Under the pieces are notes generated by a model. That model had not been told where the DNA came from. It searched no databases and saw only the letters and a list, made by a program, of their open reading frames with translations. Below, piece by piece: positions 26,321 through 42,729 of a stretch of DNA of 64,000 nucleotides; the stretch's first letter is position 1, and the number at the start of each line of letters is the position of its first letter. A program made the translations under genes and the position numbers. The stretch is from an uncultured Polyangiaceae bacterium (GTDB lineage: Bacteria > Desulfobacterota > Binatia > UTPRO1), in assembly GCA_964631985.1 (NCBI GenBank), contig CAZWAX010000001.1:943-64942 (forward strand), read 5' to 3'.

Positions 26321-27019
26321 CTAACGGCGGAAGGTCGGGGATTTCTGCATCGCTATCAGCTTCTTACGGCGCGGGTTGGCAGCTCCTTGTGGCCGAGCTC
26401 GAAATCGATAGGCAGTCGCTGCCAACCCCAGAACAGACGGGTACCGATCCCCTGCGCAGCCGCCCACCGCGCCCGGACCACCCCCCCGGGCCGATGTCGT
26501 TAGGTAGCCGGCAGCCCAACGTATGGTGTCCCGCGCGGCTCGGCTCGCGACGATCCGCACTCGACGCTCACGGTACGGCGAATCGAACGAGATTCGCGCG
26601 CCGGGTGCCTGCGCCGCCTCGCCGATGCGGGCGATGTGACCGACGAAGTCTGCGACCTTTGCCTCGCAGACGTCGTAGGGCTCATGGCCAATGCCCCATA
26701 AGACCTCCCGAGAAAATTCGGCGATCTCGTCAACCTCGCCACGCGCGCGGGTGCCTTCGTCAGTGAAGAAGTGGCTGATGCCGAGGCCTGTTCGGTCGAT
26801 GTGGACGCCCCACGCCCACCGTTCGCCAGCGATAACGCCCGCGCCGTTGTAGTGCTCGAGCGTCACCCAGTAGGAGGCCTCATCGACGTCGATCGGCACC
26901 GCCGGCACCGCGCGCAGCAAAGCTTGCGTGCGTACAACGTTCTCGCGCTGCTTCGCCGTCGCGTCGGGATGCCCGCGAATCCAGTCGCCGAGCGCGATCC
27001 CCGCGTGCAGTAGCGGCAT
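26321..27019 (-). CDS. Hypothetical protein
   Basis: ORF with internal ATG at 27019 (MPLLHAGIALGDWIRGHPDATAKQ...). No recognisable domain, weak RBS. The C-terminal third is low complexity. Confidence 0.4.
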   Translation of the reverse strand: MPLLHAGIALGDWIRGHPDATAKQRENVVRTQALLRAVPAVPIDVDEASYWVTLEHYNGAGVIAGERWAWGVHIDRTGLGISHFFTDEGTRARGEVDEIAEFSREVLWGIGHEPYDVCEAKVADFVGHIARIGEAAQAPGARISFDSPYRERRVRIVASRAARDTIRWAAGYLTTSARGGGPGAVGGCAGDRYPSVLGLAATAYRFRARPQGAANPRRKKLIAMQKSPTFRR

Positions 27020-27084
27020 GCACTCGGGTGGCACCTCGAGCGACCGCAGTGGGGAAAGGCGCGGTCGCTCCCGTGCGGCGCGCG

Positions 27085-27474
27085 CTACCACCCGAACCTC
27101 CGAAAGCGCTCGGCCCGCCACTGCTGCACCTTCAGATCGAGCCAGTCGCCAAGGTCGACCATCGCGCGTAGACCCCCGTAGACGCATACGAGCGGCACGA
27201 CGACGAGCGCCAGGAACAGGCCACCCAGCTCACCGGCATGCGCGTGGGTGTAGCGCCCCGCGCGTACGAGGAGGGCCGCTACGCCTTGACCGGGCACCGT
27301 CTCCGTCAGGAAGTGCCACGCGTGAAACGGAAAGGTCACGATGATGAGCACCCAGAGGGCTGCGCCGACACGCTGCAACCAAATGGGAGGTGGCGGCTCG
27401 ATCGCCGCGCCGCACCGCTGGCACCGAACGTCGGCGAGGTACGCCCGCGACTGGCAATGACGGCACCGTTTCAT
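27085..27474 (-). CDS. Small zinc-ribbon membrane protein
   Basis: MKRCRHCQSRAYLADVRCQRCGAAIEPP (CxxC...CxxC zinc ribbon) followed by two predicted TM helices. Confidence 0.5.
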   Translation of the reverse strand: MKRCRHCQSRAYLADVRCQRCGAAIEPPPPIWLQRVGAALWVLIIVTFPFHAWHFLTETVPGQGVAALLVRAGRYTHAHAGELGGLFLALVVVPLVCVYGGLRAMVDLGDWLDLKVQQWRAERFRRFGW

Positions 27475-27872
27475 GGCAGACCCGACGTTAGCGCGCGCAT
27501 GCCCCAGGGGCGAGCCCGATGTCACGCGTTGTCGCGCCACGCTGCTGCGCCGTCCCCCTTATCGCTAAGTTTGGAGGACCTCTCGCATGCCTGTTCCTGC
27601 TTGCCGAAGCAATTGGCGCCGCCGAGCGGCCCCATCATCAGGTGCTCGGCAGCCTCAAAAATTCACCGAGGGCTATGCCGGTCCCTGCCAAGAGGTCATG
27701 AGCACGGATGCCCCACTCTCTCGTCACGCAAGGCGACGCGCTGCGATCGTCACCGGCATGCTCCTAGTAGACCTCACTTTCGACCGAGCACCGTCGTTGC
27801 CGTGCAGGCGACGCTTCAATCGAAGGCCTAGTCGCGGTCTGGTAGGCGGCGTCGCTGGAATCCATTGCTGCC

Positions 27873-29657
27873 TCAGATATCGGCGTAGCCACCCGAGTCT
27901 ATCCACGCTCGGTTCCATGCAATGCGCCATTTGCCTGAAATCTCGACCGTCGATGCCATGATGTCGGGCGACTTGATTCGACGATTGCGCTGCAGTTGAA
28001 CTGTACACACCAGTTGCGGACCCAGTCCGAAACTGCCGAGACGGCGTCTGCGAAAGTCGCGATTGAAGATGGCCACTCGCGCGTAACCGAGCGGTAGGTA
28101 GCGTGCGAGGCTAAAAAGCGGTTGTTCGGCACGAGCCGCACGCATGGCCGCCCTCACGATCCGCTGCCGGTTGGATTGGATCACCGTTGCTGCATTGGCC
28201 GAGTCGAGACCCTCAACGACGACTGCACCCGTCACGACACAGCCCCATGAATTGCGATGCATCTTGGCGTCGCGAGCCGCGATCGTGGCCCGGCCTAGCG
28301 TCTGACTCAGCTGCCTGCGCCCAATCTGCCAGTGCAAGCGAAAACTCTGTACAACCGTGTCGAGCATTCCGAACACCCGGGGCATTGAGGGCATTGGACG
28401 GTAGAAGAACCCGTTTTGTTCGAGAGCCATCGCGAAATCGGGAGCTCTCGTCCCACCGGACTCCCGCGCCTGCCTCAGGCGGCCACCATCGAACGCCGCC
28501 CAGCCTGGCCAGCCCTTTGAGGTCCGTAGGGAAAGGAAGTAGCGGTCAAAACCAGGGGCCAGGCTCTCAGCGAGAGCGGCAGACTGCACGGAAGCCCAAT
28601 GCACCTTGAGCACGTCCCGAGATTCCGGACGGGCGTACACGAGGAGTTGCCTCCCGCTTGATAGTTCGGACTCCAAGCAACCATCGATGGTCCACCACGG
28701 AGACCGGGACTCCTCCATCAATTCTTCGACGAGCAATTCGTGCGGCGTTCGATACCCGAACGAGCTAACAGTCAGCAGGAAGAGCTTCACGGCCGATGCG
28801 ATCGCGTTGCACGAATCAACCATGTCGTCGCAGAGTCGCACAACAGACCGCACATCTAGAGTCTCGGAGTTGCCCTTCTTGTCGCGATATCTGATTTCAG
28901 ACTGCAGGTACGTGATGCCCCCGTGGCCGATCCCGTTCCGAACCGTGTGGCGGTACGCGGAGACGCACGGAGCCAGCGGAGTATTTTTCAGCTCTTCGAC
29001 GACGTTGAATACGTCGAGGCCGTCAGCTTGCTTTCCGCGATCGAGCCTTGAGAAGTGCGCCATGGGCCGCAGAAGAGTCCCGAAGACCCCCTCCACGAGA
29101 CGCAGGTACGTCGGGTGCAGCACCCTATCGATAAGGCCCACTGTCTGGAAGTCGTCACTCTTCTCTAATGGCCGATCGTGCCACGCTTCTGAGTTGATCT
29201 GACGCAGGAAGAGCATTGCCGCGCTTACTTCCGTACCGGAATCAACGAAGTACTGCTGCAGGCCCTTCCGATCAGTAGCATCACGATGCTGTAGCCAGTC
29301 GAAGACGAGGGCATGTACCCGTCGGTCGAAGAATCGTTCGGGGCAATTGAGCAGATAGGGCCTCAGCGCGAGGCACGGTGCCGAGGGATATGACGCAAGA
29401 TGGGGGAACAGGCCCAGGAGACGGAACCGATCATCGGCGTCTTTGGCCGCGGTGAGCGGATTCTTTAGCGCTTCAGTCGTCAAGCGGGCGTTCGATGGAA
29501 AGCACTGCGAGTGCACTGGGCGACGAGACGTGGATCTCCAGCCCGAACCCCAGGGTAGGCAGCAACTGTGGCGAGGCGACGACATGACGTGCTTTCGAGC
29601 GGCCTGTCGGGAAGCTCGCTGCGTGATTTGCCGACAACTGTACGCGGCGCATGTCAA
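27873..29657 (-). CDS. Hypothetical 594-aa protein with a HEPN-like Rx4H motif (VRNGIGHGG); second gene of a coupled pair
   Basis: ATG overlaps the stop of the upstream gene (ATGA at 29654-29657). A/T-richer codon usage than the flanks. No other recognisable domain, no P-loop. Confidence 0.6.
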   Translation of the reverse strand: MTCAAYSCRQITQRASRQAARKHVMSSPRHSCCLPWGSGWRSTSRRPVHSQCFPSNARLTTEALKNPLTAAKDADDRFRLLGLFPHLASYPSAPCLALRPYLLNCPERFFDRRVHALVFDWLQHRDATDRKGLQQYFVDSGTEVSAAMLFLRQINSEAWHDRPLEKSDDFQTVGLIDRVLHPTYLRLVEGVFGTLLRPMAHFSRLDRGKQADGLDVFNVVEELKNTPLAPCVSAYRHTVRNGIGHGGITYLQSEIRYRDKKGNSETLDVRSVVRLCDDMVDSCNAIASAVKLFLLTVSSFGYRTPHELLVEELMEESRSPWWTIDGCLESELSSGRQLLVYARPESRDVLKVHWASVQSAALAESLAPGFDRYFLSLRTSKGWPGWAAFDGGRLRQARESGGTRAPDFAMALEQNGFFYRPMPSMPRVFGMLDTVVQSFRLHWQIGRRQLSQTLGRATIAARDAKMHRNSWGCVVTGAVVVEGLDSANAATVIQSNRQRIVRAAMRAARAEQPLFSLARYLPLGYARVAIFNRDFRRRRLGSFGLGPQLVCTVQLQRNRRIKSPDIMASTVEISGKWRIAWNRAWIDSGGYADI

Positions 29658-30649
29658 TCGCGCACAATCAAGCGAACGGATGGATCGAGCTTCTGAAGAG
29701 ATGCTTCGAGGTCTGCGTACATTGCCCTGACCTCGTCCTGGATGAGAATGGTGTTGCCGGGAGCGTCGGCGTACACGACGATGACTTTCGGCGCATATGG
29801 CCTTCCCTCGTCGCGCTCGAACGCTAGCATCTGCTCGAGAGCCCCAGGCAATCGCGTTGCGAGCGTCCGACGGTACCGCGGAAGGTCGCCCTCAAGAAAT
29901 TTGCCGATGAGAGCTGGCCGACTGGAAGCATCAACAAAGCCGAAAGCGTCGGAAGGCTCGATCTCGATGCGGAGTCTGTAGGATCCCTTGATGTCGCTAA
30001 AGTCGACGGTGGCCGATGTGCCTCCCGAGTTGAGGGCTTCTTCCACGTCAAGGAGAAGCAGCCTGACCGCGTTCGCACCTACCCAGTCGTTCTCGTCGAA
30101 GCGTCGTAGTTCGGGGGCTTCAGTGAGCACGCAGCAAGAACTGCAGAAAAGGGCCGGCTTCGTCACAGCGAGGATCTCAATGTTTTCTCGGATTACCTCA
30201 CTGGCGTCTTGATGGGCGCTCAGGGACTTTACCTCGGCGAGTCCGATTCCTTGCGGCGCCTCAATCTGAAAGTCTGGTCTCTTCCTCTTTTTCTGAGGGG
30301 GAAGGGCAATAGCACTCGAGATTCCGATCTCGTCGCGTAGATGTCTGACGGCGCGGACCTCTGCCAACCACGTACGAATTCGAGCGTCGAACTCGCGCCC
30401 TTGATCGGCGGTCAGGTCAGCAACCAACTCATCCCAGTTCCGGACAAGCTGCGAGGCGGCATCGAGGTTCGCTTCCAGCACGTCCACGCCTACGAACCCG
30501 AGCAGAAGCCTGCGAACAAGTAGATTTCGCAGTGGCGGTACGTTGGAGTCGGTGATTCGTTGCTTCAATGCGTGGCCGATGGTGGACTGAGCGATGGAGC
30601 CGAGCATCGCATGGACGCGAACGGAAAGTTCTTCGGGCGTCATCTCCAA
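29654..30649 (-). CDS. Hypothetical 331-aa protein with a possible PD-(D/E)xK-like motif (RPDFQIE...GLAEVK); first gene of a coupled pair
   Basis: ORF directly abuts the PrimPol remnant. Basic KKRKR patch then PD...EVK spacing typical of restriction-endonuclease-like folds. This rests on motifs only. Confidence 0.55.
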   Translation of the reverse strand: MEMTPEELSVRVHAMLGSIAQSTIGHALKQRITDSNVPPLRNLLVRRLLLGFVGVDVLEANLDAASQLVRNWDELVADLTADQGREFDARIRTWLAEVRAVRHLRDEIGISSAIALPPQKKRKRPDFQIEAPQGIGLAEVKSLSAHQDASEVIRENIEILAVTKPALFCSSCCVLTEAPELRRFDENDWVGANAVRLLLLDVEEALNSGGTSATVDFSDIKGSYRLRIEIEPSDAFGFVDASSRPALIGKFLEGDLPRYRRTLATRLPGALEQMLAFERDEGRPYAPKVIVVYADAPGNTILIQDEVRAMYADLEASLQKLDPSVRLIVRD

Positions 30650-31283
30650 CCAGTAGTAGTCGGAGCTGCGGCGCCTTGTCGATCGAGTTGATTCGCGAGC
30701 GCCGCCATCGGCTCGTCGAGGGCCGAGGCTGCTGCGCCTTCACGCTCGACGGCGACGAAGCACGGTCGAGGACATCGGGGGCCCACATCGACAACGTCGA
30801 TCCGGGTGTAAGGTAGGCGGTATGCGGGGGCTCGCGGTGATCGCTGGCCTCGGGCTTGGTCGGCTGTCGTATACGGCACGCTATTGGCCCTGATCGCGGA
30901 ACCAAGGGCGAGGCGCACGGGTGCCGACCGCCGCCGCCGGTCGCGACGGTGAATGTCGCGGGCAACGTCCCGTGCTCGGGCTCGAAGGCAGCGAGGCTCG
31001 CGTCACCGCCGTGAGGCGGGTCCACGTCGAGGACGAGGAACCCCTAGGTCGTGCCGGTCGAGGTGCCGATGCTCGCGTGCGGCCACTCCGCCCACCAGCC
31101 GCGAATCGTGGCGGCATTGGTGGCGGCCTTCGCCGGCCAGCCCTTGAGCCTGGGGTGCTTGCCGGCGTCCGCGCAAACCTGGCCCTTCCGGCAGCTGCAG
31201 GTGCCTGCCTCGGTGATCTCGCAGACCGGCAAGACGCGCCAACCGCGGGCGGCGTAGCCGAGTGCAACCTCCAACAGCTCCAT
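30650..31283 (-). pseudogene. Bifunctional DNA primase/polymerase (PrimPol, N-terminal domain) gene disrupted by an in-frame TAG and downstream frame loss
   Basis: MELLEVALGYAARGWRVLPVCE...KHPRLKGWPAKAATNAATIRGWWAEWPHASIGTSTGTT-TAG(31044-31046)-GFLVLDVDPPHGGDASLAAFEPEHGTLPATFTVATGGGGRH matches the PrimPol N-domain consensus. Only about 125 codons are recognisable. Confidence 0.55.
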
Positions 31284-31672: not shown

Positions 31673-33034
31673 ATGAGCAGACGCACGCCGGGTGAACAGA
31701 TCGGGCCGTGGACCGTCGTCCGGGATATCGGACAAGGTGGCAACGGTGAAGTCTTCGAAGCGACCGCCGGGGACGGTGGCCGAGTCGCGCTGAAAGTCTT
31801 GAAGGCGATCAATCCAGCTGGGGAACCCTACGGCAGATTCTGCGATGAAGTAGCGATCATGACAAAGGTCGGACCGCACCCCGGGGTGCTCCCGCTCTTG
31901 GCTTCCTCGGTCCCACTTGAGCCCTCGCGAAAGAATCCGCCATGGCTTGCGACCCCAATCGCGGTTGCCATCCGTGACGCCATGACCGACCAGCCGGTCG
32001 AGGTGGTCGTGGAGGCAATCGCTAACGTCGCCGAGACGCTTGCCGATCTTCAAGCGAAGTTCGAGGCGTTCCATCGCGATATCAAGCCGCCGAATCTGTT
32101 CTCGTACGATGGCCGTTGGGTTGTTGGCGATTTTGGTCTGGCAGATTTTCCCCTGAACGCAGGGTTGACCCCGCAGAATCAGAAACTCGGGCCGGTGTTC
32201 TTCATCGCGCCCGAAATGTTGAGGGATGGCTCAGCTCCCAGCCCCACCGCGGATGTGTACTCGCTGGCCAAAACTCTTTGGGTACTAGCTACGGGGCAAA
32301 CCTACCCTCCTCAGGGCGAGCAGCGGATAGATGTCCCCGCGATGACCCTAGCCCACTTTATCGCTCACCCACGGGTGCGTACCCTGGACCGATTGGTCGA
32401 GCGCGCGACCCGGCACGATCCGACTGCGCGACCCTCAATGTCGGAGTTCGCGAGGGAGCTACGCGAATGGCTGAATCCAGTCGGGGCTGTTCCGTCACCG
32501 GGTGACGTGAGCCACCTTCGCGCGCGCTTCGAGGCTGCCGTTGAACCTGCGCGGCGCACCGCGGCCAGCGTTGAGGATTTGCAGGTGCAGGCAATGGAGA
32601 CCTTCAAAGAGATGCGCGTGGCAATGGCGCCTCTCTTGCGAACGGTCCAACAGGTTGTGCCAGCCGCATCGATGGATCCGCGGGACACGATAATTCTCGA
32701 GATTTGCGGGTACATCACTCCACTCAGCGAGCCGAAATTCATTTCGGCGAAGCATCTGACAATCATCGCCAGGCCGATTCCAGGCGATTCTTTCGCGCCC
32801 GTGTTGCGATGTGGCTTTGCACTGCAGCTGCGTCCCGACGGCAAGATGCACATTGGTGGTTCGGTTCTCGTTGGCGGACAAACCAAAGCCGATCAGCAAT
32901 GGAAGGGAATGTTTCGGGAGATGGTGTCAGTAGGGTCGCCGCGAGAACCCAACGCAGCAATGGAATGTGTGGCCGCGGTGCAAGCGGAGCTTCCGAGAGC
33001 CCTGGAAGCCCTTGTCCAAGCGTTGGAAAGGTAG
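31673..33034 (+). CDS. Hanks-type Ser/Thr protein kinase with an uncharacterised roughly 170-aa C-terminal domain
   Basis: GQGGNGEVFEA (Gly loop), VALKVLK (VAIK), HRDIKPPNL (catalytic loop), VGDFGLADF (DFG), APE. The C-terminal part has no recognisable motif. Confidence 0.8.
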   Translation: MSRRTPGEQIGPWTVVRDIGQGGNGEVFEATAGDGGRVALKVLKAINPAGEPYGRFCDEVAIMTKVGPHPGVLPLLASSVPLEPSRKNPPWLATPIAVAIRDAMTDQPVEVVVEAIANVAETLADLQAKFEAFHRDIKPPNLFSYDGRWVVGDFGLADFPLNAGLTPQNQKLGPVFFIAPEMLRDGSAPSPTADVYSLAKTLWVLATGQTYPPQGEQRIDVPAMTLAHFIAHPRVRTLDRLVERATRHDPTARPSMSEFARELREWLNPVGAVPSPGDVSHLRARFEAAVEPARRTAASVEDLQVQAMETFKEMRVAMAPLLRTVQQVVPAASMDPRDTIILEICGYITPLSEPKFISAKHLTIIARPIPGDSFAPVLRCGFALQLRPDGKMHIGGSVLVGGQTKADQQWKGMFREMVSVGSPREPNAAMECVAAVQAELPRALEALVQALER

Positions 33035-33197
33035 CTGCGCAGAGCATCGCTCCAACAGCGTGACGAGCAGCACTCGTCCGAGCAGGGGCCTCGCGCGCCA
33101 GCGCACGTGGCCAGCGTGACGGGTAAAACGCGGCACTGCGCCGCAACCATCTCTATCCCTGACGCCACGACGTGAGCAACACGCTGGGCGTCCGCAA

Positions 33198-34913
33198 CTA
33201 GGCGGAACGTTGCATCGCGGCACTGAAAATAACGGCGAAGATCTCCACGTCACCGTCGCAGCGGAACACCTGATCCTTGCCCGTGTCCTTCTCTACGACG
33301 ATGCCGTCGTCGTACCGCGTCGCGTTGATGACCTTCGAGTACGGAATGTTCGTCGTCTTCCGTGACCCGTCGAGGATCAGCCTCTTGCTGGTCACGTAGA
33401 GGGTGCCTTGGTCGATCTCGTGGAGGACGTCCTCTGTGACGCGGTTCACCGTCGCAGAGCCCACGCGGTAGGCGACGCCCTTCATGATCGGCACGCGCAC
33501 AGTCGGCCCCGCGTAGCGGACCGCGCGCGTGCGCGTTCGGAGTTCGTGGTGGACTGCGGGGATCGTCGCGTGGCATTGCTCGCCGCGCTGAAGCCGGATC
33601 GAAGGCGTGATCAGGGGCAGCTCGCCGTTCTCGATCCGCCACAGGAGGCGGAAGCGGTCCAGCGTGGCCGCCGTGGCGTTGTCGTGGGTCAGCGTCACGT
33701 TCAACTGCCGGGCGAGCGCTGAGAGTTGCGCGTCTTCGTCGGGTGACAGTCGGCGGTCGCTGGTCGCGTTGTCTAGGACTCTCTGAAACAGCGGACCGAT
33801 CGACTCCGCTCGAATCGCGTTCGCGAGCTGGTCGGACATTCGGAGCTTCGTGGCGAGGTCGATCAGGCGCGTCTGTTCGGCCTCGGTCAGTTCGCGGTCG
33901 TCCGCGGCCGCGGCGAAATGATGCTCGTAGATCGGCCGCGTGACGGCTTCGTGCGCGCCGCGCACGTCGTTGTCGTCGAGCCCGAGGAGGCCCTGCAGGT
34001 GGCGAAGGTCGGCGACCTCGTCGTCCGACAGCGCATCATCGCGGACGGCGTGTCGCAGCACGGTCGCGTAGACCTCGCAGCCCTCCGCGCGGAAGTCCTG
34101 CGGCCGGATGCGGTACTGACGCAGGACGTCGCTGACCACTTCCTCGGTGATGTCCGGGATCGCCGTCGTCGCGAGCAGGTTGCCGATCTCTACTACGGCG
34201 TTCGCGCGCGGGCGTCGTCGGAACAGTCGTGCGAAGAACCCGACCTTGCGGAGGGGTGTGAGCGAGAAGCCGTTCAGCCCCGTCGCGGCAGGGGGTGTCG
34301 GCGGCGGTGTGGCGATCGCCTTTGGGCGAGAAGGCGGCGCGTCCTGCGGCTGCGGGTCGTGCGACGGAGAGTCCGCAGCGGGCGGCTGCTGGGGCGGCTG
34401 ATCCAACAAGGCCGCGGCCGTGCGGTAGGCCAGCGTTTTGGTGCTGCCGAGCTGAACGCTGCCGCCGTCGCGCTGTCCGAAGCTGTGGAGGCCGCCGGCG
34501 TAGTTCGCCTCGTGGTAGCGCATGGACGCGACGACCTTTGGGTTGCTGCACATGGCCTCGGCGATGGCGCCGACCTGTGCCTCCGGCAAGCCGCTGTCAT
34601 TAGGATCGTTCCACACGCGCCCGTTTCGATGCCGGTGGACCTGATGGACGAAGTACGTCGCCATGAGGACCTCGTTCCCCGGCATCGCGAGCGTGCCTTC
34701 GACCCGCGCGAACACCTCGCGAGAAGGTCTGTCCGCAGAGTCGACGCCAAGCCGGGTAGCCCACCGCTCCAGCCAGGCGGGTGGCGGGTACTTCGCGCGC
34801 AGTGCTTTGCTGATGAGCGTCGACATCTCGGACATCGAGATGTCGTCCGAGAAACTGATGCCGAGGTCACGGGCGTAGCTTCTTTGTCGTTCTGAGGCCG
34901 ATTCTAGCGACAT
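33198..34913 (-). CDS. Hypothetical protein with a Pro-rich linker, TerB-like repeats and a C-terminal bacterial PH-like domain
   Basis: ATG at 34913; the longer track ORF uses TTG. Repeats ...LSDDEVADLRHLQGLLGLDDNDVR... and ...ELTEAEQTRLIDLATKLRMSDQLANAIRAES are TerB/DjlA-N-like. C-terminal YVTSKRLILDGSRKTTNIPYSKVINATRYDDGIVVEKDTGKDQVFRCDGDVEIFAVIFSAAM looks bPH/GRAM-like. Confidence 0.5.
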   Translation of the reverse strand: MSLESASERQRSYARDLGISFSDDISMSEMSTLISKALRAKYPPPAWLERWATRLGVDSADRPSREVFARVEGTLAMPGNEVLMATYFVHQVHRHRNGRVWNDPNDSGLPEAQVGAIAEAMCSNPKVVASMRYHEANYAGGLHSFGQRDGGSVQLGSTKTLAYRTAAALLDQPPQQPPAADSPSHDPQPQDAPPSRPKAIATPPPTPPAATGLNGFSLTPLRKVGFFARLFRRRPRANAVVEIGNLLATTAIPDITEEVVSDVLRQYRIRPQDFRAEGCEVYATVLRHAVRDDALSDDEVADLRHLQGLLGLDDNDVRGAHEAVTRPIYEHHFAAAADDRELTEAEQTRLIDLATKLRMSDQLANAIRAESIGPLFQRVLDNATSDRRLSPDEDAQLSALARQLNVTLTHDNATAATLDRFRLLWRIENGELPLITPSIRLQRGEQCHATIPAVHHELRTRTRAVRYAGPTVRVPIMKGVAYRVGSATVNRVTEDVLHEIDQGTLYVTSKRLILDGSRKTTNIPYSKVINATRYDDGIVVEKDTGKDQVFRCDGDVEIFAVIFSAAMQRSA

Positions 34914-35036
34914 GTTGCGTGCTCCCACCACACCGTGCGGCGCACGGTCAAGGCCCACCAGCGGCGACGACGCTGCCGGTTGCAAGGCGCCCCGGTCGGG
35001 CCTACACGCGCGGCACCACGAACGAAGGAGGACTTC

Positions 35037-35267
35037 ATGCAGCCCGCAACCGTCCGCGAGCAGCCAGGCCCCTACCAGTTCTTCATGATCGGCCTCTGCG
35101 TTTACGTCCTCGTGATCTTAGGCGCGACCACGTTGTTCGAGTTCAGTAGCCCGACGCGGAGCATCCTCGACTACATCGACAGCGGCATCTGCGTACTGTT
35201 CTTCGCCGACTTCTGCGTGAGCCTGGTACGCGCCCCGAGTCGCTGGCGGTACCTCATCCGACACTGA
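35037..35267 (+). pseudogene. N-terminal fragment (about 76 aa) of an ion-transport (voltage-gated-channel-like) membrane protein
   Basis: Strong RBS GAAGGAGGA before the ATG. MQPATVREQPGPYQFFMIGLCVYVLVILGATTLFEFSSPTRSILDYIDSGICVLFFADFC resembles the S1-S2 region of ion transport proteins, then stops. Confidence 0.4.
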
Positions 35268-35700
35268 CTTCTAGCGAAACGATGCGACCGCTACTGCGCT
35301 CAGTGCCGTTAGCGTCGCAAGCACGATCAAGCAGCCGGTCCCGGCGCGCGCTCTCTTGCCGATCCCATCAGTAACGGTTTCAGGGTCCGATTGGCGTTCG
35401 CGGTCATGTTCTCCTCTTTCCAGAGCTGCCATGCCGCGTGTCGATCAGAATCCTCTGCGTACCATTCATCGAGCCAATCGCTTACCGCCCTTCGGCCGTT
35501 CTGCGCGACGTGTTCATGTCCCCAGAACCGCAGGACCATGAGCTGCCGGCGGCTTACCGATGCCGCTGAGCTGAGGCCGTCAGACGAAGGCCAGATTGTA
35601 CCGCCCATTGGCTTTTGACCGTGTGGAGGAGGGCATCAGCAGTCTACACAAGTGCCGGTTTGCGTTGGTTCTTGAGGCGCGGAGTTCGATCGGCAGAGTC

Positions 35701-36699
35701 CTACCCCTTCTTCGTGATCCGAAGATAGCGGTCGAACACGGGGTCTCCTTCCTGAAGCACGGTGGGGGTCTTCGGCACTGCCTCAACCGGCAGATCCCAA
35801 ACGGCCTCACGGGCCTGGTCTTCGACGTGTATCGAGGCCGAGAAGAACAGGTGGCCGCTACTACCACTCGAGTACGCGCGCTCCATCGCCCGGCGCAGCA
35901 TCGAGAAGTCGATCTCGACACTGAACGGAAAGGCGTTCCTCAGAAGCGATACTGGCACCCGTACGCGAAGCCATTGCAGCCGCGCCGGACGCAACACAAA
36001 CCGCCGCAGGCGATGATGGCCGGCGAGGCGCGCAAAGTCGTTCTCCACGACCGTGCGAAGATAGCCGGCGAGAGGTTGCCCGGCGATTAGGTGCGCCGCG
36101 ATGCTGCACATCGCACTCGTGTACGCAGCCTGGTCCTCAGATGTCAGACTGAGCCTCTGGCGGTTCGTAGTAACCGTCATCGTACCGTTGTTGCTCATCA
36201 CCAAGCCGCCATTGTGGACTACCGCGCCCCGGTAGGGTGCGAAAACACGATAGAGTTCCCAGAAAGCGTGGCTTAAGTCGGGCCACGCCGAGAAGAGCGG
36301 AGGCTCCATCAGCGATCCGCGGTTGCGCAGATCGTTGTAGGCGTCCCGCTTGTCGCTAAAGCGCCACGGCGCTTCGCCGTTGGCGCGAAGAATCCACTCG
36401 ACGGTCAGGTCCTGAAGCTTGAAGGCGGTGCTGAACGCGAGCGGCCGGAAGCGTTCGAGCGCGTTGCGAACGGCGCCTGCTGAAAAGCTTTCCTCGAGTT
36501 GAAGAACAAGGTCTCCCCGAAACTCGCCCGACGTGTTCACGTCCCCAAGCGTGATAGTCATGCCTCCATCCGCCGCCTCGCTTTGCCGCCACAATGTCGC
36601 TCGCAGAAATTCAAGCGCATCGCGCTCGTAGGCAACCGAGTCTTCGAGATCGCTTGGGTTTCCAGTGAACCTGCTGGGGTGTGGCGGTATGCCACCCAT
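35701..36699 (-). CDS. Hypothetical 332-aa protein; last gene of the STAND-linked operon
   Basis: ATG overlaps the upstream stop (TGATG at 36697-36701). No recognisable domains. Confidence 0.55.
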   Translation of the reverse strand: MGGIPPHPSRFTGNPSDLEDSVAYERDALEFLRATLWRQSEAADGGMTITLGDVNTSGEFRGDLVLQLEESFSAGAVRNALERFRPLAFSTAFKLQDLTVEWILRANGEAPWRFSDKRDAYNDLRNRGSLMEPPLFSAWPDLSHAFWELYRVFAPYRGAVVHNGGLVMSNNGTMTVTTNRQRLSLTSEDQAAYTSAMCSIAAHLIAGQPLAGYLRTVVENDFARLAGHHRLRRFVLRPARLQWLRVRVPVSLLRNAFPFSVEIDFSMLRRAMERAYSSGSSGHLFFSASIHVEDQAREAVWDLPVEAVPKTPTVLQEGDPVFDRYLRITKKG

Positions 36700-37946
36700 C
36701 ACTCGTTGCCAGACGCCAACCAGCCGGATCTGAACCGTCTGGTGAAGCGAATATCGAACATGCGCTCCATCTGCCGCAGCCAAGGACCCTGGAGCGGGTG
36801 AAGATAGTCCCTCGGTTCCATCAGCGCCCCGACAGGTGCGAAGGCATATGTGAAGTCGCGCCAGGCGTCGGTCAGCTGCGGGCCCGCAGGCGCCCCCCCG
36901 CGCGGAAGCGTCTCGTCGCCAGGGGAGAAGGCGTACTCGAAGGGTTCGCACCAGGACGCTTCAAGGTAGCGCTCTCCCGTCACATAGTCGTCGGGCGAGG
37001 CGATAACCTTCTGGCGCATCTCCCGCGCCGCCGCTGAAAACTCACCCACGACATTGCTGTAGATGTTGGCGAGATCCTGGTGGTCCTTGCCATAGAGGGC
37101 GATGACCCTCTCCAGGGCGTGGACGGCATCCTTCGCGAAGTAGTCTCCGAAGAGGTTGAGATTCTCCTCGACACTCGTCCACGAGCCTTCGACGGCGCGT
37201 TCCATCGCGGCGAGCAACTCCCCAGGCTTCTTTTCCAGCATGCTGCCCATCATTGTGGCGAACGTGTCGTCGTGCGTCCGATCCGGCGCGGGCAAGTTCG
37301 GATTGCTAAGGCAGAGCTGGATGAAGATGTTGAAGAGTGTCGCCAGCCGGAAGCGCTCGGCCGCTCTGACGCGCGCAAGAAGTATCCGGAGACAGTTGAG
37401 CGGCGTCCCGTACCGAGGGTCTCGCGCGAAGTCTGCGACCAACAGATCGAAGGCCCGACCCTTCAGATCTCGCAACGCGATTGTGAGCTGCATGAGGGTA
37501 GCCGATGCTTCGAAGACGAAACGGGCGGCCCTGGAATACCACAGGTACTGGCGTTCGAACCCGTTGTGCAGATCGAGCATCTCCTGGGTTACGCCAATCG
37601 TCTCTGTCCCAAGGGGAAGCGGCAGATGTCGCCCCCGATTGCGGCCGAGCCTTTTGGCGAGCAGCAGCGTGATCGCGCTTCGTCCGAGGGCCGAGCCGAA
37701 GAGGTGATTTCCGACGGGGGTCAGAAGAACGTCGTGAAAGTGGCGTCGTTCATGGACCCTGGTCGTCATCCGGTGCGCCAGATCGGCCTGTTCCGCGTCG
37801 GAAAGATGCGCCGCCGCGGCGAACGTTTCCGCGGGTGGTTGTCCGGTGGCAAGGAGTAGATCGACGTCCTCCGACGCCTTCCGGTTCAACAACACTGCGA
37901 GCGAGGGGACGTGAAGAAGGCCGTAGCGCTTGTTGCAGAAGTCCAA
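36699..37946 (-). CDS. Hypothetical 415-aa alpha-helical protein; third gene of the STAND-linked operon
   Basis: Long ORF whose only in-frame start near the 5' end is TTG at 37946, 15 nt after the upstream stop. The start is uncertain and no domain is recognised. Confidence 0.5.
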   Translation of the reverse strand: MDFCNKRYGLLHVPSLAVLLNRKASEDVDLLLATGQPPAETFAAAAHLSDAEQADLAHRMTTRVHERRHFHDVLLTPVGNHLFGSALGRSAITLLLAKRLGRNRGRHLPLPLGTETIGVTQEMLDLHNGFERQYLWYSRAARFVFEASATLMQLTIALRDLKGRAFDLLVADFARDPRYGTPLNCLRILLARVRAAERFRLATLFNIFIQLCLSNPNLPAPDRTHDDTFATMMGSMLEKKPGELLAAMERAVEGSWTSVEENLNLFGDYFAKDAVHALERVIALYGKDHQDLANIYSNVVGEFSAAAREMRQKVIASPDDYVTGERYLEASWCEPFEYAFSPGDETLPRGGAPAGPQLTDAWRDFTYAFAPVGALMEPRDYLHPLQGPWLRQMERMFDIRFTRRFRSGWLASGNE

Positions 37947-37961
37947 AGCTTCGGGTCCGCG

Positions 37962-38303
37962 CTACTTGGTGACGGCGATCCGTATGCGCTGCTCGATGCT
38001 CGCTGCGTCCGAGGACTGATCGATCGCGATGATCACATCGTCGGCGCCGCGCACGACGACCGACACGGACTGCTGCGGCGACGCGTCGCGCGCGGCGAGC
38101 AGACGCCGGGCGATCCCGGCGAGGCAGGCCGCGAAATGCTGAGCGCCCACGGCGATGGTGACGACGTCGGCGAGCTGCTCCAGATAGGAGTCGAGGATTG
38201 TGTCAGTTGCGTTGTCCAACGTCCGGCGCGATCCGTCCTCCGTATCGTAGGCCAAATCCTTCGCGAGTTTGGGCGGCGCGACGATCTCGAAGACGATGTC
38301 CAT
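37962..38303 (-). CDS. Small 113-aa hypothetical protein (possible Roadblock/LC7-like or STAS-like fold); second gene of the STAND-linked operon
   Basis: ATG at 38303 lies 85 nt downstream of the STAND gene. ...SVSVVVRGADDVIIAIDQSSD... is the only weak fold hint. Confidence 0.45.
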   Translation of the reverse strand: MDIVFEIVAPPKLAKDLAYDTEDGSRRTLDNATDTILDSYLEQLADVVTIAVGAQHFAACLAGIARRLLAARDASPQQSVSVVVRGADDVIIAIDQSSDAASIEQRIRIAVTK

Positions 38304-38388
38304 CGTGTCCCCATCTCATAGGAGTTCGATCCGAGGTTCAACTGGCGGCGGCATGGAGCCGACGGATATTGCTTCGGGAAGGAGTGCC

Positions 38389-41300
38389 TCAAAGACTCCC
38401 AGCGTCAGGATCGGGCGTCATGATAGGCCACGGTCGACCGGAGGCAAGATCGGGATGGCGCGGCCCGGCTTCCGGTGAGCCGTACTCATCCCAGATCCGG
38501 TCTACTTGGTTCAGGCAACGCGCGGCTGCGTCCAACGCCCCACCGTCTGTCGTCAGTGCAAGAAGTTTCTCGCGAAGTTCAACGGCAGGGACGGGAACAA
38601 TCGTGAACGCCCCCTTCAAATTCTCGGAAGGTACATGCTGGGTGACCACGCGCCCGATCGCCCGCCGCGAGATGAGAGAGCGCCAACCTCCCTCAAAGCT
38701 GAGTAGAAGTAGTACGCCTTCGGCATCGGGATTCTCCACGACGGCCTCGGCGAGCATTGCTAGGCCCGGCGTTGATGCGCCGTTGCTGAGGAACCCATAG
38801 ACGTGGGCACGCAGCGCAGGATGTGCGTCGAATAACTCGCCGATGTGGCCGGCCATGTGCCAGCGATCGAGGTTCCCGTCCGCAAAGGAACCGCCTGCAG
38901 CCAAGTCCACAAAGCGGCGCGCGGCGGAGAGGGTTCTCCGGCGCGTGACGGCGTCGCGCCACACGTGACTGTCATAGAAGGCGGGACAGGCTTCAGCAAA
39001 AGCAAAGAGCGCGTTTTCAGCGTCAACACCAGGTGCTTCGCCGAAGGCACGGATCATTTCCTCCAAACGATCGGGCCTTCGTTGCTCCTCCGGCAGGGTC
39101 TGAACAACAGTGAGCGCCTCAGCTGGAAAATTCGTGAACGGCAGTAGTCGCAGCCATTCACTGACTTCGTAGCCATCACTCAGGATCCAGCTTTGGGTTC
39201 TGCCAGCCTCCATGACCTCAGCGAGGCCTGTCTTCACGACGCCGATGTCGACGATGTGACCGGACAGCACTTGGTTCAGAAGTAGTGCGGCCCGTAAGCG
39301 GCGTGGTGCGATGGCGATCAGACTTTGAACCGTCGCATCACGCTGGCCATGCGGCAGCCGCGATGCCACGACGCCAAGCGCGAGGCCGAGCTTTTTCCGC
39401 TCTTCCGGCACGCCGTCGGCGATCAGTGGCTCAAGCGCTGCGAAGATTGTCTCCGCTTCCACCGAAGTCGCTGAAGGATTGGCGGCGCGAGCGGCTCTTT
39501 TCTCTTCCACGCGTGAGAAATCCGGACCGCCGAAAACCCGCCTGCTGTTCGGCGGATCGTTCGCCTTCTGCCATCTGGCCGCGAGGACGTGCGCGGCAGC
39601 TTCGCCGAAATGGTCGTCGATAAGATACTCTCGCATCAAAGCGGCTGTCTCCGGAGCGTCGATGGACAGGAACGCGTGCTGGTACTCATTCGTATGCGGT
39701 GTGATGGCTTCGGTCGCGGCTTCGCTGTGGGCTCGCCCACCGGCTGCTTGCGCTTCGGCACGGAAGGCGCGATAGTGGCGGAGGTTGTCGTCCAGCAAGC
39801 GCCTCAACAATGGCAGCAGCGCGATAGAGGGGGCCTGGCTTGCTAGCGTTGCGATGCTAGCCGTCTGCCAGCGCTTCGCGGTACCGGAAGCCAGCATGCG
39901 GTCGCCCCACTCCTGGGCGATTGCCTGAATAGTCGCACGTGAATCAGCGTCGAACGGTCTGCCGTGATCGCCCTCCCCACTTGGATGACGCGAGAGAAGC
40001 CCTGCCAAGCGCGCCATTTGGTCGTTATCGGCTTGCAGAGAGCGGGCATGGATGGCGGCAACGAGACTGGCGCCGCGGGCATGCGCGAGCCGACGCAAAA
40101 GGGTGTGGTAGCGGTCACTTGCGGCTTGGTCGTATGTACCGTCCACATTCAGCCGCGCCCGTGCTTCGTTCAGTGCCTCGATCATGCGGCCGACGGCCAA
40201 CGGTCCGAGCGCGGAAGCCGCGGCTTCTCCGCGGTCATGCGGCCGGGTGGCGTCCATCAGCGCAAGTTCCAGTAGTGCGTCGTCTTCGAGACTGAAACAG
40301 GCTGCAGCGAGAATATCATCGGCTCCGTAGAATAAGGTTCGCCCGGTGCGCACGCGGGTGAGGAGGCCGCTCGCGACAGCACGGGGATAACGCTGGCGCG
40401 CTTCGTAGACGAGATGAACCGCCGCGTCCCGCCCCTCGGTTTCCATCGACCCGATGAAGTCGGCCAGCTCTAAAGCCCGGTCTTCGGCAAAATCCGAGTA
40501 CACGATCGAGTGAAGCCGGTCGTAATCCGAAACTCCTGTCGCGATCTCCCGCTCGCGCGCAGCGGCGAGGCGCTCCTTGACGCGCTCGTCGGGAACGTTG
40601 TGGACGAACCTGTTGCGCGCAACCAGGTCGATGGTCTCGTCGCCAGCGTACCGCAGCACGTCGGCGACGTGTCGATCCGCGCCCCGAAAAGCCAGCGCCT
40701 CAACCGTCGAGACTTGAACTTCAGTCGCGGGATCATCGCTTGCGATAGCGGTCGCGAGATCGAGACCGTCGATGCCGCTGTTGGATGCCATCTCGTGCAG
40801 CAGGACGGTCCGCACCTTGGCCGACAGCCCACAGATCCTCGTCACGGCATCACTCCCGAGGATTGACGGTCGGAACCGGCTGCAGTTGCGCAGCGCCTTG
40901 AGACTCGTCTGATCGTCCTCGTGCGTGATGAGCGGCCAGACCGCGTCAAGGAACTCAGGGCGTCCCGACGCGAGCATAAAACGCAATGCGCGATCCACCT
41001 TGCCCGGCGTATGCCAGCGAGCGACGAGCCCCCGGATTGTTGGGGCGATGGGCGCCCACACTTCCTCCGTCGCCCTGAAGATCATCTCGGCCGCGAGAAT
41101 GGGATCGACTTCGAACGCCGAGAGAATGGCCTTGCCGCACACGGCCTGCTGGTGCGCATCGCTGCGCGCCATACGTTCCACCGCGAAGAGAATGGCTTCT
41201 TCCCATATGGGAAGGTTGAATACTTCAGCCTTCAGCGCCTCGCGGCTCCTCGGATCATCGGCCGCCGCGGTAGTCCGGCGCTCTACGGAGTGAGAGGCAT

Positions 41301-42729
41301 ACCACTCCTGAAACTGCTGGTGCTGGAAAGAGTAGCCCAGCGTGCCGCCCGTGCGGATCAGAACATGATTGCTGGCGAGCACGTCCAGCACGTCGTCCGG
41401 CTGGGACGGGATAGTGATCTGCCCGTCCCCGATCAGCGTTGCCTGGGTTTGAGAGACGGTCCGCCGGGCGTTCGTGTCGGCGATAGACGTGTTCTGTGTC
41501 CGCGTGGCGAACACGGCGAGACACTCCAGATGATCCTGCTGGAAACCATGCACAACGTCGCGCAGCGTCTCGGCGCGACGGGCATCAGTTTCGTGCACAG
41601 TCACGAAGTGCCGCAGGAGTTCCTCCTTGGTCGTTGGGAAGGGCGCGCCTTCAGGAAGGGAGAGCAGTGCGGTGAGATAGAGTGGGATCGTTACGAGCTC
41701 GCGGACACCAGGCGTGCGCCAAGCCTGATCGACGATCCTCAGGCCTGCTTCGCCGCGCATCGCGGCGGCGATCTGCGTTTGCTGCTTTTGGTTGAGCGGC
41801 AGGAGATCGACGCGCATCCCGACGAAAGGAACGTCGAGGGCGTGCTTGCGGGTCGAGACGATGAAGCCGAGCTCAGGTAGCTCCGCCATCAGGCGATCGA
41901 CCTGTACGCGCGCTCGCGTCCGCCCGTCCGGACTCAATTCGTTCCAGCCGTCGAGCAGCAGGACAACACCGGGTTTGGCGGCGACTGCACGGAAGTCGTC
42001 TTCCGATATGGCCTGGAACCCCTGACGAGTGAGGATGGACCCTAGCAGTGACAACGTTTGCGTGGCCCAATCGGCGAGCGGGATGATGATGGGCGTGCCT
42101 CCGGCGTCGGCGATGAGGGCTTGGGCGATCTGGAATAGTGTCGTCGTCTTTCCTGTGCCGGGTCCGGCGACGAGGATTAGATCGTCGAGCGACGTGACGA
42201 CGCGCGCGAGCGCGGTTGTCGTCGCAGGCTGACCAAAGCCTTCTACCTCCAGCGTGAGCGCTACGGCACTGGATGGCCATTTGGTTGTGCGGCGGAAAAC
42301 AGAGAGATCCGCCTCAGCAGCGGCGCGAAGACGATCCGCCGGTTGCCCGACGGCAATAGGCAGAGGCCCACGGGACGCTTCGTTCTGCAACACGCGGCGT
42401 CGAGCGTCGTCTTCCGCTAGCTTCTTCCATTCGCGTAGACGCTCGATGGTGAATTCTGGATCCTTATCGTCGATAGCCTTGCCGTGATTGCGACACATCC
42501 AGATGCCGTTGCTTGCGGAACGGCGTTCCGCGGATGACATGTTTGCGTCACCGCGGGGGCTGCGGTCGGATTCCACGGCGCCGATGATGTGCGCCGCCGT
42601 GCCGAGATTGATTTCACCGCCGACGGTCAGCGCACGACAAGATGGATAGGAGCAAAGCCAGCCCGCGCGCTTAGCGATCTGGGTCTTTATCCGGTCTGTG
42701 AACTCGTCTCTGTTTCTGTTTCCTGGCAT
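38389..42729 (-). CDS. STAND-class NTPase: N-terminal HNH-like nuclease motif, NACHT NTPase module and long C-terminal HEAT/ARM-like repeats (antiviral-STAND/Avs-like architecture)
   Basis: HNH-like segment: C-x2-C (CSYPSC)...AAHII...N-x4-C-x2-H (NGIWMCRNH). Walker A: LILVAGPGTGKTTTL. NACHT-type Walker B: VVLLLDGWNEL. Roughly 900 aa of helical repeats follow. Confidence 0.8.
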   Translation of the reverse strand: MPGNRNRDEFTDRIKTQIAKRAGWLCSYPSCRALTVGGEINLGTAAHIIGAVESDRSPRGDANMSSAERRSASNGIWMCRNHGKAIDDKDPEFTIERLREWKKLAEDDARRRVLQNEASRGPLPIAVGQPADRLRAAAEADLSVFRRTTKWPSSAVALTLEVEGFGQPATTTALARVVTSLDDLILVAGPGTGKTTTLFQIAQALIADAGGTPIIIPLADWATQTLSLLGSILTRQGFQAISEDDFRAVAAKPGVVLLLDGWNELSPDGRTRARVQVDRLMAELPELGFIVSTRKHALDVPFVGMRVDLLPLNQKQQTQIAAAMRGEAGLRIVDQAWRTPGVRELVTIPLYLTALLSLPEGAPFPTTKEELLRHFVTVHETDARRAETLRDVVHGFQQDHLECLAVFATRTQNTSIADTNARRTVSQTQATLIGDGQITIPSQPDDVLDVLASNHVLIRTGGTLGYSFQHQQFQEWYASHSVERRTTAAADDPRSREALKAEVFNLPIWEEAILFAVERMARSDAHQQAVCGKAILSAFEVDPILAAEMIFRATEEVWAPIAPTIRGLVARWHTPGKVDRALRFMLASGRPEFLDAVWPLITHEDDQTSLKALRNCSRFRPSILGSDAVTRICGLSAKVRTVLLHEMASNSGIDGLDLATAIASDDPATEVQVSTVEALAFRGADRHVADVLRYAGDETIDLVARNRFVHNVPDERVKERLAAAREREIATGVSDYDRLHSIVYSDFAEDRALELADFIGSMETEGRDAAVHLVYEARQRYPRAVASGLLTRVRTGRTLFYGADDILAAACFSLEDDALLELALMDATRPHDRGEAAASALGPLAVGRMIEALNEARARLNVDGTYDQAASDRYHTLLRRLAHARGASLVAAIHARSLQADNDQMARLAGLLSRHPSGEGDHGRPFDADSRATIQAIAQEWGDRMLASGTAKRWQTASIATLASQAPSIALLPLLRRLLDDNLRHYRAFRAEAQAAGGRAHSEAATEAITPHTNEYQHAFLSIDAPETAALMREYLIDDHFGEAAAHVLAARWQKANDPPNSRRVFGGPDFSRVEEKRAARAANPSATSVEAETIFAALEPLIADGVPEERKKLGLALGVVASRLPHGQRDATVQSLIAIAPRRLRAALLLNQVLSGHIVDIGVVKTGLAEVMEAGRTQSWILSDGYEVSEWLRLLPFTNFPAEALTVVQTLPEEQRRPDRLEEMIRAFGEAPGVDAENALFAFAEACPAFYDSHVWRDAVTRRRTLSAARRFVDLAAGGSFADGNLDRWHMAGHIGELFDAHPALRAHVYGFLSNGASTPGLAMLAEAVVENPDAEGVLLLLSFEGGWRSLISRRAIGRVVTQHVPSENLKGAFTIVPVPAVELREKLLALTTDGGALDAAARCLNQVDRIWDEYGSPEAGPRHPDLASGRPWPIMTPDPDAGSL

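Follow-up and report, generated by a model that had tools for sequence, protein, structure and literature searches.

The window analysed here is a 64,000-nucleotide stretch of DNA from an uncultured Polyangiaceae bacterium (assembly GCA_964631985.1, contig CAZWAX010000001.1), and the locus under study comprises two convergent genes at its positions 31,673 to 34,913. One codes for a soluble Hanks-type Ser/Thr kinase and the other for a soluble protein with TerB/Tic110-like repeats. A preliminary description of the sequence had raised the possibility that both belong together in a defence-type island. The kinase, which has no partner, belongs to a large and undescribed family of cytoplasmic Hanks Ser/Thr kinases. 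Hallmarks of this family are an invariant catalytic core, a family-specific motif in the C-lobe and a unique C-terminal module of about 180 amino acids (aa), formed by a long helix and then a two-helix, four-strand sandwich. The neighbour carries TerB/Tic110 repeats and ends in a probable GRAM/PH-like domain; its gene is accessory and independent, and it is no partner of the kinase.

The catalytic domain was recognised by the Pfam model Pkinase (PF00069) with an E-value of 2e-19 and 70.5 bits against a cutoff of 31.7 (residues 14-259). Every catalytic motif named in the preliminary description was located: GQGGNGEV (residues 20-27), VALK (38-41), HRDIKPPN (134-141), DFG (153-155) and APE (179-181). 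The reading frame, the Pfam match, these positions and the invariant residues confirm a Hanks kinase with its full set of motifs. In an alignment with 32 full-length homologues no variation was seen at K41, E59, H134, R135, D136, K138, N141, D153 and T166 of the activation loop. Since the catalytic residues, the RD arginine and T166 do not vary among these homologues, the family is predicted to be formed by active, RD-type, Ser/Thr-specific kinases. The C-lobe bears the family-specific motif ADVYSLAKTLWVLATGQ. The AlphaFold2 model of the full-length protein reached a predicted local distance difference test score (pLDDT) of 90.8, and Foldseek matched the model to the kinase domains of PknB, IRAK4 and FGFR2 at E-values of about 1e-14. 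Motifs, a score above the gathering threshold and fold thus place the protein in the Hanks-type Ser/Thr kinase superfamily. No membrane segment is present (maximum 19-residue Kyte-Doolittle mean of 1.08) and no PASTA repeats were found in the Pfam scan; together with a score of 62.5 bits on the NCBIfam model PknB_PASTA (NF033483, cutoff 450), these features set the kinase apart from the PASTA kinases of the housekeeping PknB type, the grouping that the preliminary description had given as the one that would speak against it.

The rest of the protein, here called CTD1, comprises a helix of about 49 residues (280-328), four antiparallel strands (358-419) and a closing helix (424-452). Modelled by itself, it gave a pLDDT of 93.1 and a predicted template modelling score (pTM) of 0.83. 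The preliminary description had seen no recognisable domain in the C-terminus, and for the last 180 aa or so this holds by sequence: no match was obtained in Pfam (even at E<=5), NCBIfam, PHROGs, a PDB profile search or BFVD (E<=0.001), and no model for CTD1 or for the zinc-ribbon partner that accompanies some of its relatives (see below) was identified in Pfam, NCBIfam or PADLOC.

Membership of the CTD1-kinase family was defined operationally as a full-length match with the kinase core, the ADVYSLAKTLW motif and the C-terminal helix-sheet-helix domain. The window kinase matches the family hidden Markov model (HMM) with an E-value of 7.8e-167 over profile positions 4-452, and the profile of the C-terminal domain with 2.2e-43 over residues 274-452. 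Full-length homologues of 450-460 aa with 35-44% identity are plentiful, and CTD1 is present in 110 of the 120 best kinase homologues. An exhaustive profile search for CTD1 over 1.84 billion representatives (E<=0.001) returned 607 clusters at 50% identity, nearly all of about 450 aa with the domain at residues 270-455 or so. Stand-alone CTD1 proteins of about 198 aa were considered as a separate family and rejected, as the four inspected look like fragments of kinase genes: they start at the end of the kinase domain (two of the four at its conserved Met) or lack a real start context. The genome scan with the full-length alignment was swamped by generic kinases, only loci L009-L013 being relevant, and was rerun with a family-specific sub-alignment; close relatives occur in no more than a handful of species-representative genomes. 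No description of the family was found by full-text literature searching.

A partner gene was identified in a sister clade of the family. When the flanking open reading frames (ORFs) were clustered over about 96 loci, the sole recurrent neighbour was a double zinc-ribbon protein of about 155-165 aa with invariant CxxC...CPYC and CHP...CxxCG. Among the loci with a complete kinase and flanks of 600 bp or more at each side, its gene was identified in 15 of 35, which correspond to 13 of 31 distinct kinases, and its occurrence is clade-specific. In a neighbour-joining tree the partnered kinases form adjacent clades and the window kinase lies in a neighbouring clade without partner. Two layouts were observed. 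In the first the gene is upstream, co-directional and overlapping the kinase start (L089, L093 and L108), and in the second, which comprises most loci, it is downstream and convergent, with the stop codons overlapping or within about 11 nt. The loci with this gene are L089/L090, L093, L108, L118, L127, L135, L141, L147-149, L152-155, L165-168, L170, L172 and L184-186. The zinc-ribbon family contains 1789 clusters at 90% identity, none of them annotated, and in all three members chosen independently the gene abuts a kinase of this type (456-459 aa in two, disrupted in the third). The sister clade is strictly coupled to this protein of about 160 aa, and both genes appear to form an undescribed two-gene module. 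The zinc-ribbon gene was not found anywhere in the window by tblastn or HMM, which leaves the window kinase outside the partnered branch.

Kinase modules about 48-50% identical to that of the window occur with other accessory parts. One variant carries an N-terminal pentapeptide-repeat region and lacks the C-terminal domain; others present an alternative C-terminal tail of about 340 aa, added Kelch/NHL propellers or N-terminal extensions. A constant enzymatic module combined with variable accessory modules is also seen in the immune sensors Avs (a STAND NTPase) and CapRel. A sister family of 477 aa shares about 33-37% identity in the kinase core and has a different, internally conserved C-terminal domain of about 200 aa; homology of this domain with CTD1 was ruled out (hhalign probability 0.15%). 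This family was identified in the Pantoea plasmid pSOD02 (L187), the Rhizobium plasmid pTiB21/90 (L188), Vibrio, Caulobacter and IMG/VR prophage contigs, as well as in loci L011, L013, L175-L180 and L189 (Escherichia coli MS 119-7), and in E. coli it is found in 3 of 5426 genomes. In pTiB21/90 the kinase is flanked by two further kinases, by a PP2C phosphatase and by an 'ABC-three component system protein', and in E. coli MS 119-7, the one of the three genomes that was inspected, it is at the tail-fibre end of a prophage, adjoining a GIY-YIG protein and the pinE recombinase. The 478-aa kinase of the E. coli prophage, considered as a candidate for PD-T4-6 proper, obtained only generic PADLOC scores.

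The contexts of the CTD1 kinases are diverse. They comprise a type I restriction-modification system with HicAB and relaxase/TrwB; BREX with a reverse transcriptase; a conjugative type IV secretion system (T4SS) cluster; an integrase with insertion sequence (IS) elements and M78-DUF4411; an RHS toxin; and type III methyltransferases, a CBASS cyclase and integrases. The family moves among unrelated genomic contexts, many of them on mobile elements or beside defence systems. The preliminary description had treated the kinase as a gene of a defence-type island, and the variable, often mobile or defence-rich surroundings of its relatives agree with this.

The functional pairing of the kinase with the convergent gene did not survive a check of co-occurrence. 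The HMM of the neighbour family had no match in the 96 other loci of the kinase family, so that the window is the only one among 97 with both genes; sequence of 1.9 kb or more was available downstream of the kinase in 51 of those 96 and on one side in 62. Eight additional kinase loci were likewise negative. From the other direction, none of the three homologues of the neighbour whose contexts were examined (P0122, P0145 and P0144) adjoins a kinase. The locus of the 87%-identical copy (L007) aligns with the window by blastn at 86.7% identity over 1749 nt, window positions 33205-34953, that is the gene plus about 40 bp, and nothing else is common to both. Because the DNA likeness is confined to the gene itself, the neighbour gene is a discrete, independent cassette present in two unrelated settings. 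The surroundings of that copy (L007/L008) are mobile-looking, with a lambda Ea47-like protein, a Trypsin_2 protease, a DnaB/DUF3987 primase-helicase and large FG-GAP/DUF4215 proteins.

A two-gene defence system in which the TerB/PH-like protein acts as membrane or stress sensor, or as substrate, of the kinase would draw on the adjacency of both genes within the island, convergent and 163 bp apart, and on the partial match of the repeat region to the PADLOC candidate PDC-S48. One kinase homologue (L002) also has another, faint TerB-like protein three genes downstream, which was tried as a relative of the neighbour and found unrelated (BLASTP E 0.79). Neither of the two proteins has a membrane segment, which also counts against such a system. 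The empty kinase loci, the homologues without adjacent kinase and the shared DNA limited to the gene weigh far more, and such a system is very improbable; the pair is essentially excluded. The preliminary description had named lack of conserved linkage as evidence against a pair, and since the pairing is not conserved, that is what was found. The spacer between the stop codons yielded neither a terminator-like site nor a meaningful repeat nor an Rfam family, and a search for promoters, terminators, repeats, tRNAs and Rfam families around both genes gave nothing informative.

The neighbour had been described as a protein of 572 aa combining a Pro-rich linker, TerB-like repeats and a PH-like end. 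Its size is 571 aa, the ATG start being backed by the identical database protein and by the 87% homologue. The linker is present, the repeats are supported through Tic110 and at the family level, and the evidence for the PH-like end is weak. The Pfam model Tic110 matched residues 239-331 (E 2.2e-8, 33.5 bits against a cutoff of 27). No TerB match was found in the window protein at E<=0.01; among 26 family members, Tic110 matched 24 and TerB (PF05099) 18, with a best E-value for TerB of 6e-7. Searched against PDB, the family profile found the Tic110 structure 4bm5 (E 4.9e-11) and the TerB structure 2ou3 (E 0.04). The partial match to PADLOC PDC-S48 (E 1.6e-10) covers residues 266-369 and profile positions 218-314, about 97 of 411, which is short of membership. 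The C-terminal block obtained weak matches to GRAM in 7 of the 26 members (best E 0.0021) and to Vps36-GLUE in 4, and in the window protein only Voldacs at E 0.23; on these profile matches the domain is probably GRAM/PH-like.

Most relatives have about 360 aa, equivalent to the last 60% of the window protein. The N-terminal 165 aa and the Pro-rich linker are confined to the window copy and its 87% homologue (alignment A4), and the N-terminal domain matched nothing in Pfam (E<=5) or in a PDB sequence search. By hydropathy the protein has no membrane segment. With TerB/Tic110 repeat proteins it shares the repeated D..LS..E...L..L helical hairpins; unlike them, its family adds a conserved C-terminal GRAM/PH-like domain and the gene is outside any ter operon, and the window copy further adds its unique N-terminal domain and linker to this plan. 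The neighbour is no ordinary TerB stress protein; together with its relatives it forms a small separate family, and it may act in stress or defence as a single gene.

Table. Coordinates in the window of the features of the kinase gene, the convergent gene and the NACHT gene cluster
Feature	Position	Strand	Evidence
Soluble Hanks-type Ser/Thr kinase gene, 453 aa (CTD1-kinase family)	31673..33034	+	ORF; identical database protein P0001
Kinase catalytic domain, residues ~14-270	31712..32482	+	Pfam Pkinase, invariant columns of alignment A1, motifs, Foldseek
Long linker helix and alpha/beta C-terminal domain CTD1, residues 272-453	32486..33031	+	
Spacer between convergent stop codons, 163 bp	33035..33197	.	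Direct sequence reading
Soluble protein gene, 571 aa	33198..34913	-	ORF; database proteins P0121 (identical) and P0122 (87%)
C-terminal conserved domain, residues ~430-571, probably GRAM/PH-like	33201..33626	-	Most conserved block of alignment A4; family-level GRAM/Vps36-GLUE
TerB/Tic110-like helical repeats, residues ~239-420, motif D..LS..E...L..L	33654..34199	-	Pfam Tic110, PADLOC PDC-S48, family profile
Pro-rich linker, residues 166-215, 30% proline	34269..34418	-	Composition
N-terminal domain of the neighbour, residues 1-165	34419..34913	-	Alignment A4
Small gene, 332 aa	35701-36699	-	
Small gene, 415 aa	36699-37946	-	
Small gene, 113 aa	37962-38303	-	
HNH-like nuclease N-terminus, NACHT and NCAB2, 1446 aa	38389-42729	-	PADLOC PDC-M68A, 'Effector endonuclease'

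Both genes are contained in a stretch of lower G+C content. The G+C content of the window falls from about 0.66-0.72 to about 0.60-0.64 at about 24 kb onward, and the low stretch comprises positions 24000-46000 or so, with its left edge at about 24.4 kb, following a DUF2267 gene. From about 46.1 kb on, starting with a multicopper oxidase, the genes are ordinary again, although the G+C content stays lower to the end of the window. Upstream of the kinase, a 79-aa ORF on the reverse strand (31044-31283) has a Pfam match to Prim-Pol (Logan gene call) and a G+C content at third codon positions (GC3) of 0.91, and is probably the remnant of a replication gene of a mobile element. Between the neighbour and the NACHT genes, an ORF of 76-110 aa on the forward strand (35037-35267, GC3 0.84) with a weak match to Ion_trans (E 8e-4) looks like a fragment of an ion-channel gene. 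Four co-directional genes with tiny gaps (35701-42729, reverse strand) may form a multi-gene NACHT defence operon; the HNH-NACHT-NCAB2 gene is 5 kb from the kinase, and the three small genes matched nothing in Pfam, PADLOC, NCBIfam or PHROGs. The label of defence-type island thus stands in part: the lower G+C content, the Prim-Pol fragment and the single HNH-NACHT-NCAB2 gene support it, whereas no tRNA gene or integrase domain was found in the window and most other island genes match nothing.

The kinase was also compared with the models of known kinases. In NCBIfam it obtained 64.8 bits on MAD6 (NF047741, cutoff 460) and 21.4 bits on PglW (NF033442, cutoff 990), far from membership in either, and it resembles PknB, AfsK and StpK7 to the same degree as MAD6. 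In PADLOC the best single match was mad6 with 98 bits, restricted to the kinase domain, and the PD-T4-6 models were among the best matches with up to 89.7 bits (E 5.8e-26, residues 7-276); on the long PD-T4-6 models, of 415-564 positions, the matches end by profile position 350 or so. Two kinases with an unrelated C-terminal domain scored 58-86 bits on the same models. No match to mad models was identified among the neighbouring ORFs scanned (26321-30649 and 33198-42729) and no Brx or Pgl gene among the window ORFs scanned.

Taken together, the two genes are read as unrelated single-gene cassettes lying tail to tail in a variable island of lower G+C content, the kinase being a candidate self-contained sensor-effector that would act, like Stk2 or PD-T4-6, in conflicts with phages or other mobile elements. 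To this reading we give an even chance. The C-terminal module would keep the RD-type kinase inactive by autoinhibition or mediate its oligomerisation, possibly dependent on a trigger, a gating in which the zinc-ribbon protein of the partnered clades would take part. Upon a trigger, for instance a phage protein or a change induced by infection, the kinase would autophosphorylate Thr166 of the activation loop, as other RD kinases do, and once active it may phosphorylate host and/or invader proteins, by which the infection or the cell would be stopped. A broader proposal, tentative and rather doubtful, is that CTD1 kinases with or without the zinc-ribbon partner form a widespread undescribed class of phosphorylation-based immunity or conflict, where the sandwich and the zinc-ribbon protein would sense the invader and switch on a promiscuous kinase, the window representing the minimal one-gene version.

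Several results weigh against a sensor-effector of this kind. The fold of CTD1 yields no specific functional clue, and the pTM of the full-length model is just 0.63, so that the packing of the two domains, and hence autoinhibition, is not fixed by the model. The PD-T4-6 and mad6 labels appear to reflect the shared catalytic domain only and are not diagnostic, because kinases with an unrelated C-terminus score comparably on the same models. No tRNA gene, integrase domain or Rfam element bounding the island was found in the window. Loci L002, L091 and L191 have housekeeping flanks, no recurrent defence family was identified among 74 flanking proteins, whose neighbourhoods are heterogeneous, and the defence association of the family is moderate, not overwhelming.

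The kinase could instead serve the mobile element that carries it, either as an anti-defence or host-takeover kinase or, in the partnered clades, as the toxin-like part of an addiction module with the zinc-ribbon protein as antidote. Members of the family inside a conjugative T4SS cluster or adjoining relaxase and coupling-protein genes point in this direction, as do the Prim-Pol remnant beside the window copy, the related kinases on plasmids and prophage contigs and the tight coupling of two genes, which resembles toxin-antitoxin logic. Precedents are the kinase of phage T7, reported to counteract defences broadly (PMC13645617), and the prophage kinase-phosphatase module KKP (PMC11341870). 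However, the IMG/VR matches lack CTD1, several loci have purely chromosomal housekeeping flanks, most zinc-ribbon pairs are convergent with overlapping stop codons, an uncommon arrangement for toxin and antitoxin genes that are co-transcribed, and the window copy, lacking the partner, is no classical two-gene addiction module. An element-serving role is on the unlikely side. Less probable still is an ordinary signalling kinase for host physiology, such as stress or development, that happens to lie in a variable region. High-G+C soil bacteria often encode dozens of Hanks kinases, the same that swamped the genome scan, some homologues have housekeeping neighbours and the likeness in NCBIfam to PknB, AfsK and StpK7 equals that to MAD6; against this, the kinase lacks a membrane or sensor-repeat architecture, no chromosomal neighbourhood is conserved over about 96 loci, close relatives are restricted to few species-representative genomes, many copies are on mobile elements and the sister clade has a dedicated partner travelling with the kinase. 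In this ranking, defence or conflict appears as the most likely role and service to a mobile element as a serious rival.

Kinase-based bacterial immunity is known from few cases, namely Stk2, PD-T4-6, KKP and the kinases of BREX and MADS, and how infection is sensed is largely open. The CTD1 family, with an invariant core, swappable accessory modules and one clade with an obligatory zinc-ribbon partner, offers tractable natural variants of one or two genes and different sensor modules, as material for how a Hanks kinase stays off and is then turned on. Two cautions for annotation follow: adjacency within an island does not make a system here, the TerB/PH gene being separate, and where such kinases are automatically labelled 'PD-T4-6' or 'mad6', the label mirrors the shared catalytic domain only.

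Among known systems, the window kinase is classified with the stand-alone conflict-associated Hanks kinases, with a novel C-terminal domain. One of the closest is PD-T4-6 (Vassallo et al. 2022, PMC9519451), a single-gene eukaryotic-like Ser/Thr kinase of E. coli UMB0949 that confers protection against T4. It is encoded by a single gene of 1311 nt (RRM76169.1, 436 aa). Both are soluble single-gene Hanks kinases, of 436 and 453 aa, with about 165-180 aa beyond the kinase domain, but the matches, compared through the PADLOC models, stop at or just past that domain. Stk2 of Staphylococcus epidermidis is cited in PMC9519451 as an abortive-infection kinase switched on by a phage protein (Depardieu 2016). 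It serves as the conceptual model, being a Hanks kinase of the cytoplasm that detects infection and then phosphorylates numerous targets; its PADLOC match to the window kinase is weak and partial (29.3 bits, residues 113-208) and the accessory regions differ. Mad6 of MADS and PglW of BREX have the Hanks kinase domain in common with it; unlike it, they are part of multi-gene methylation-associated defence systems and have 612-1391 aa and other architectures, and no further MADS or BREX gene was identified near the window kinase. Finally, PknB/Stk1 PASTA kinases share the catalytic fold, PknB being the top Foldseek match (E 1.8e-14, 25% identity), but they carry a transmembrane helix and PASTA repeats and work in housekeeping cell-wall signalling; they are conserved and syntenic, whereas the distribution of the CTD1 kinases is patchy and mobile.

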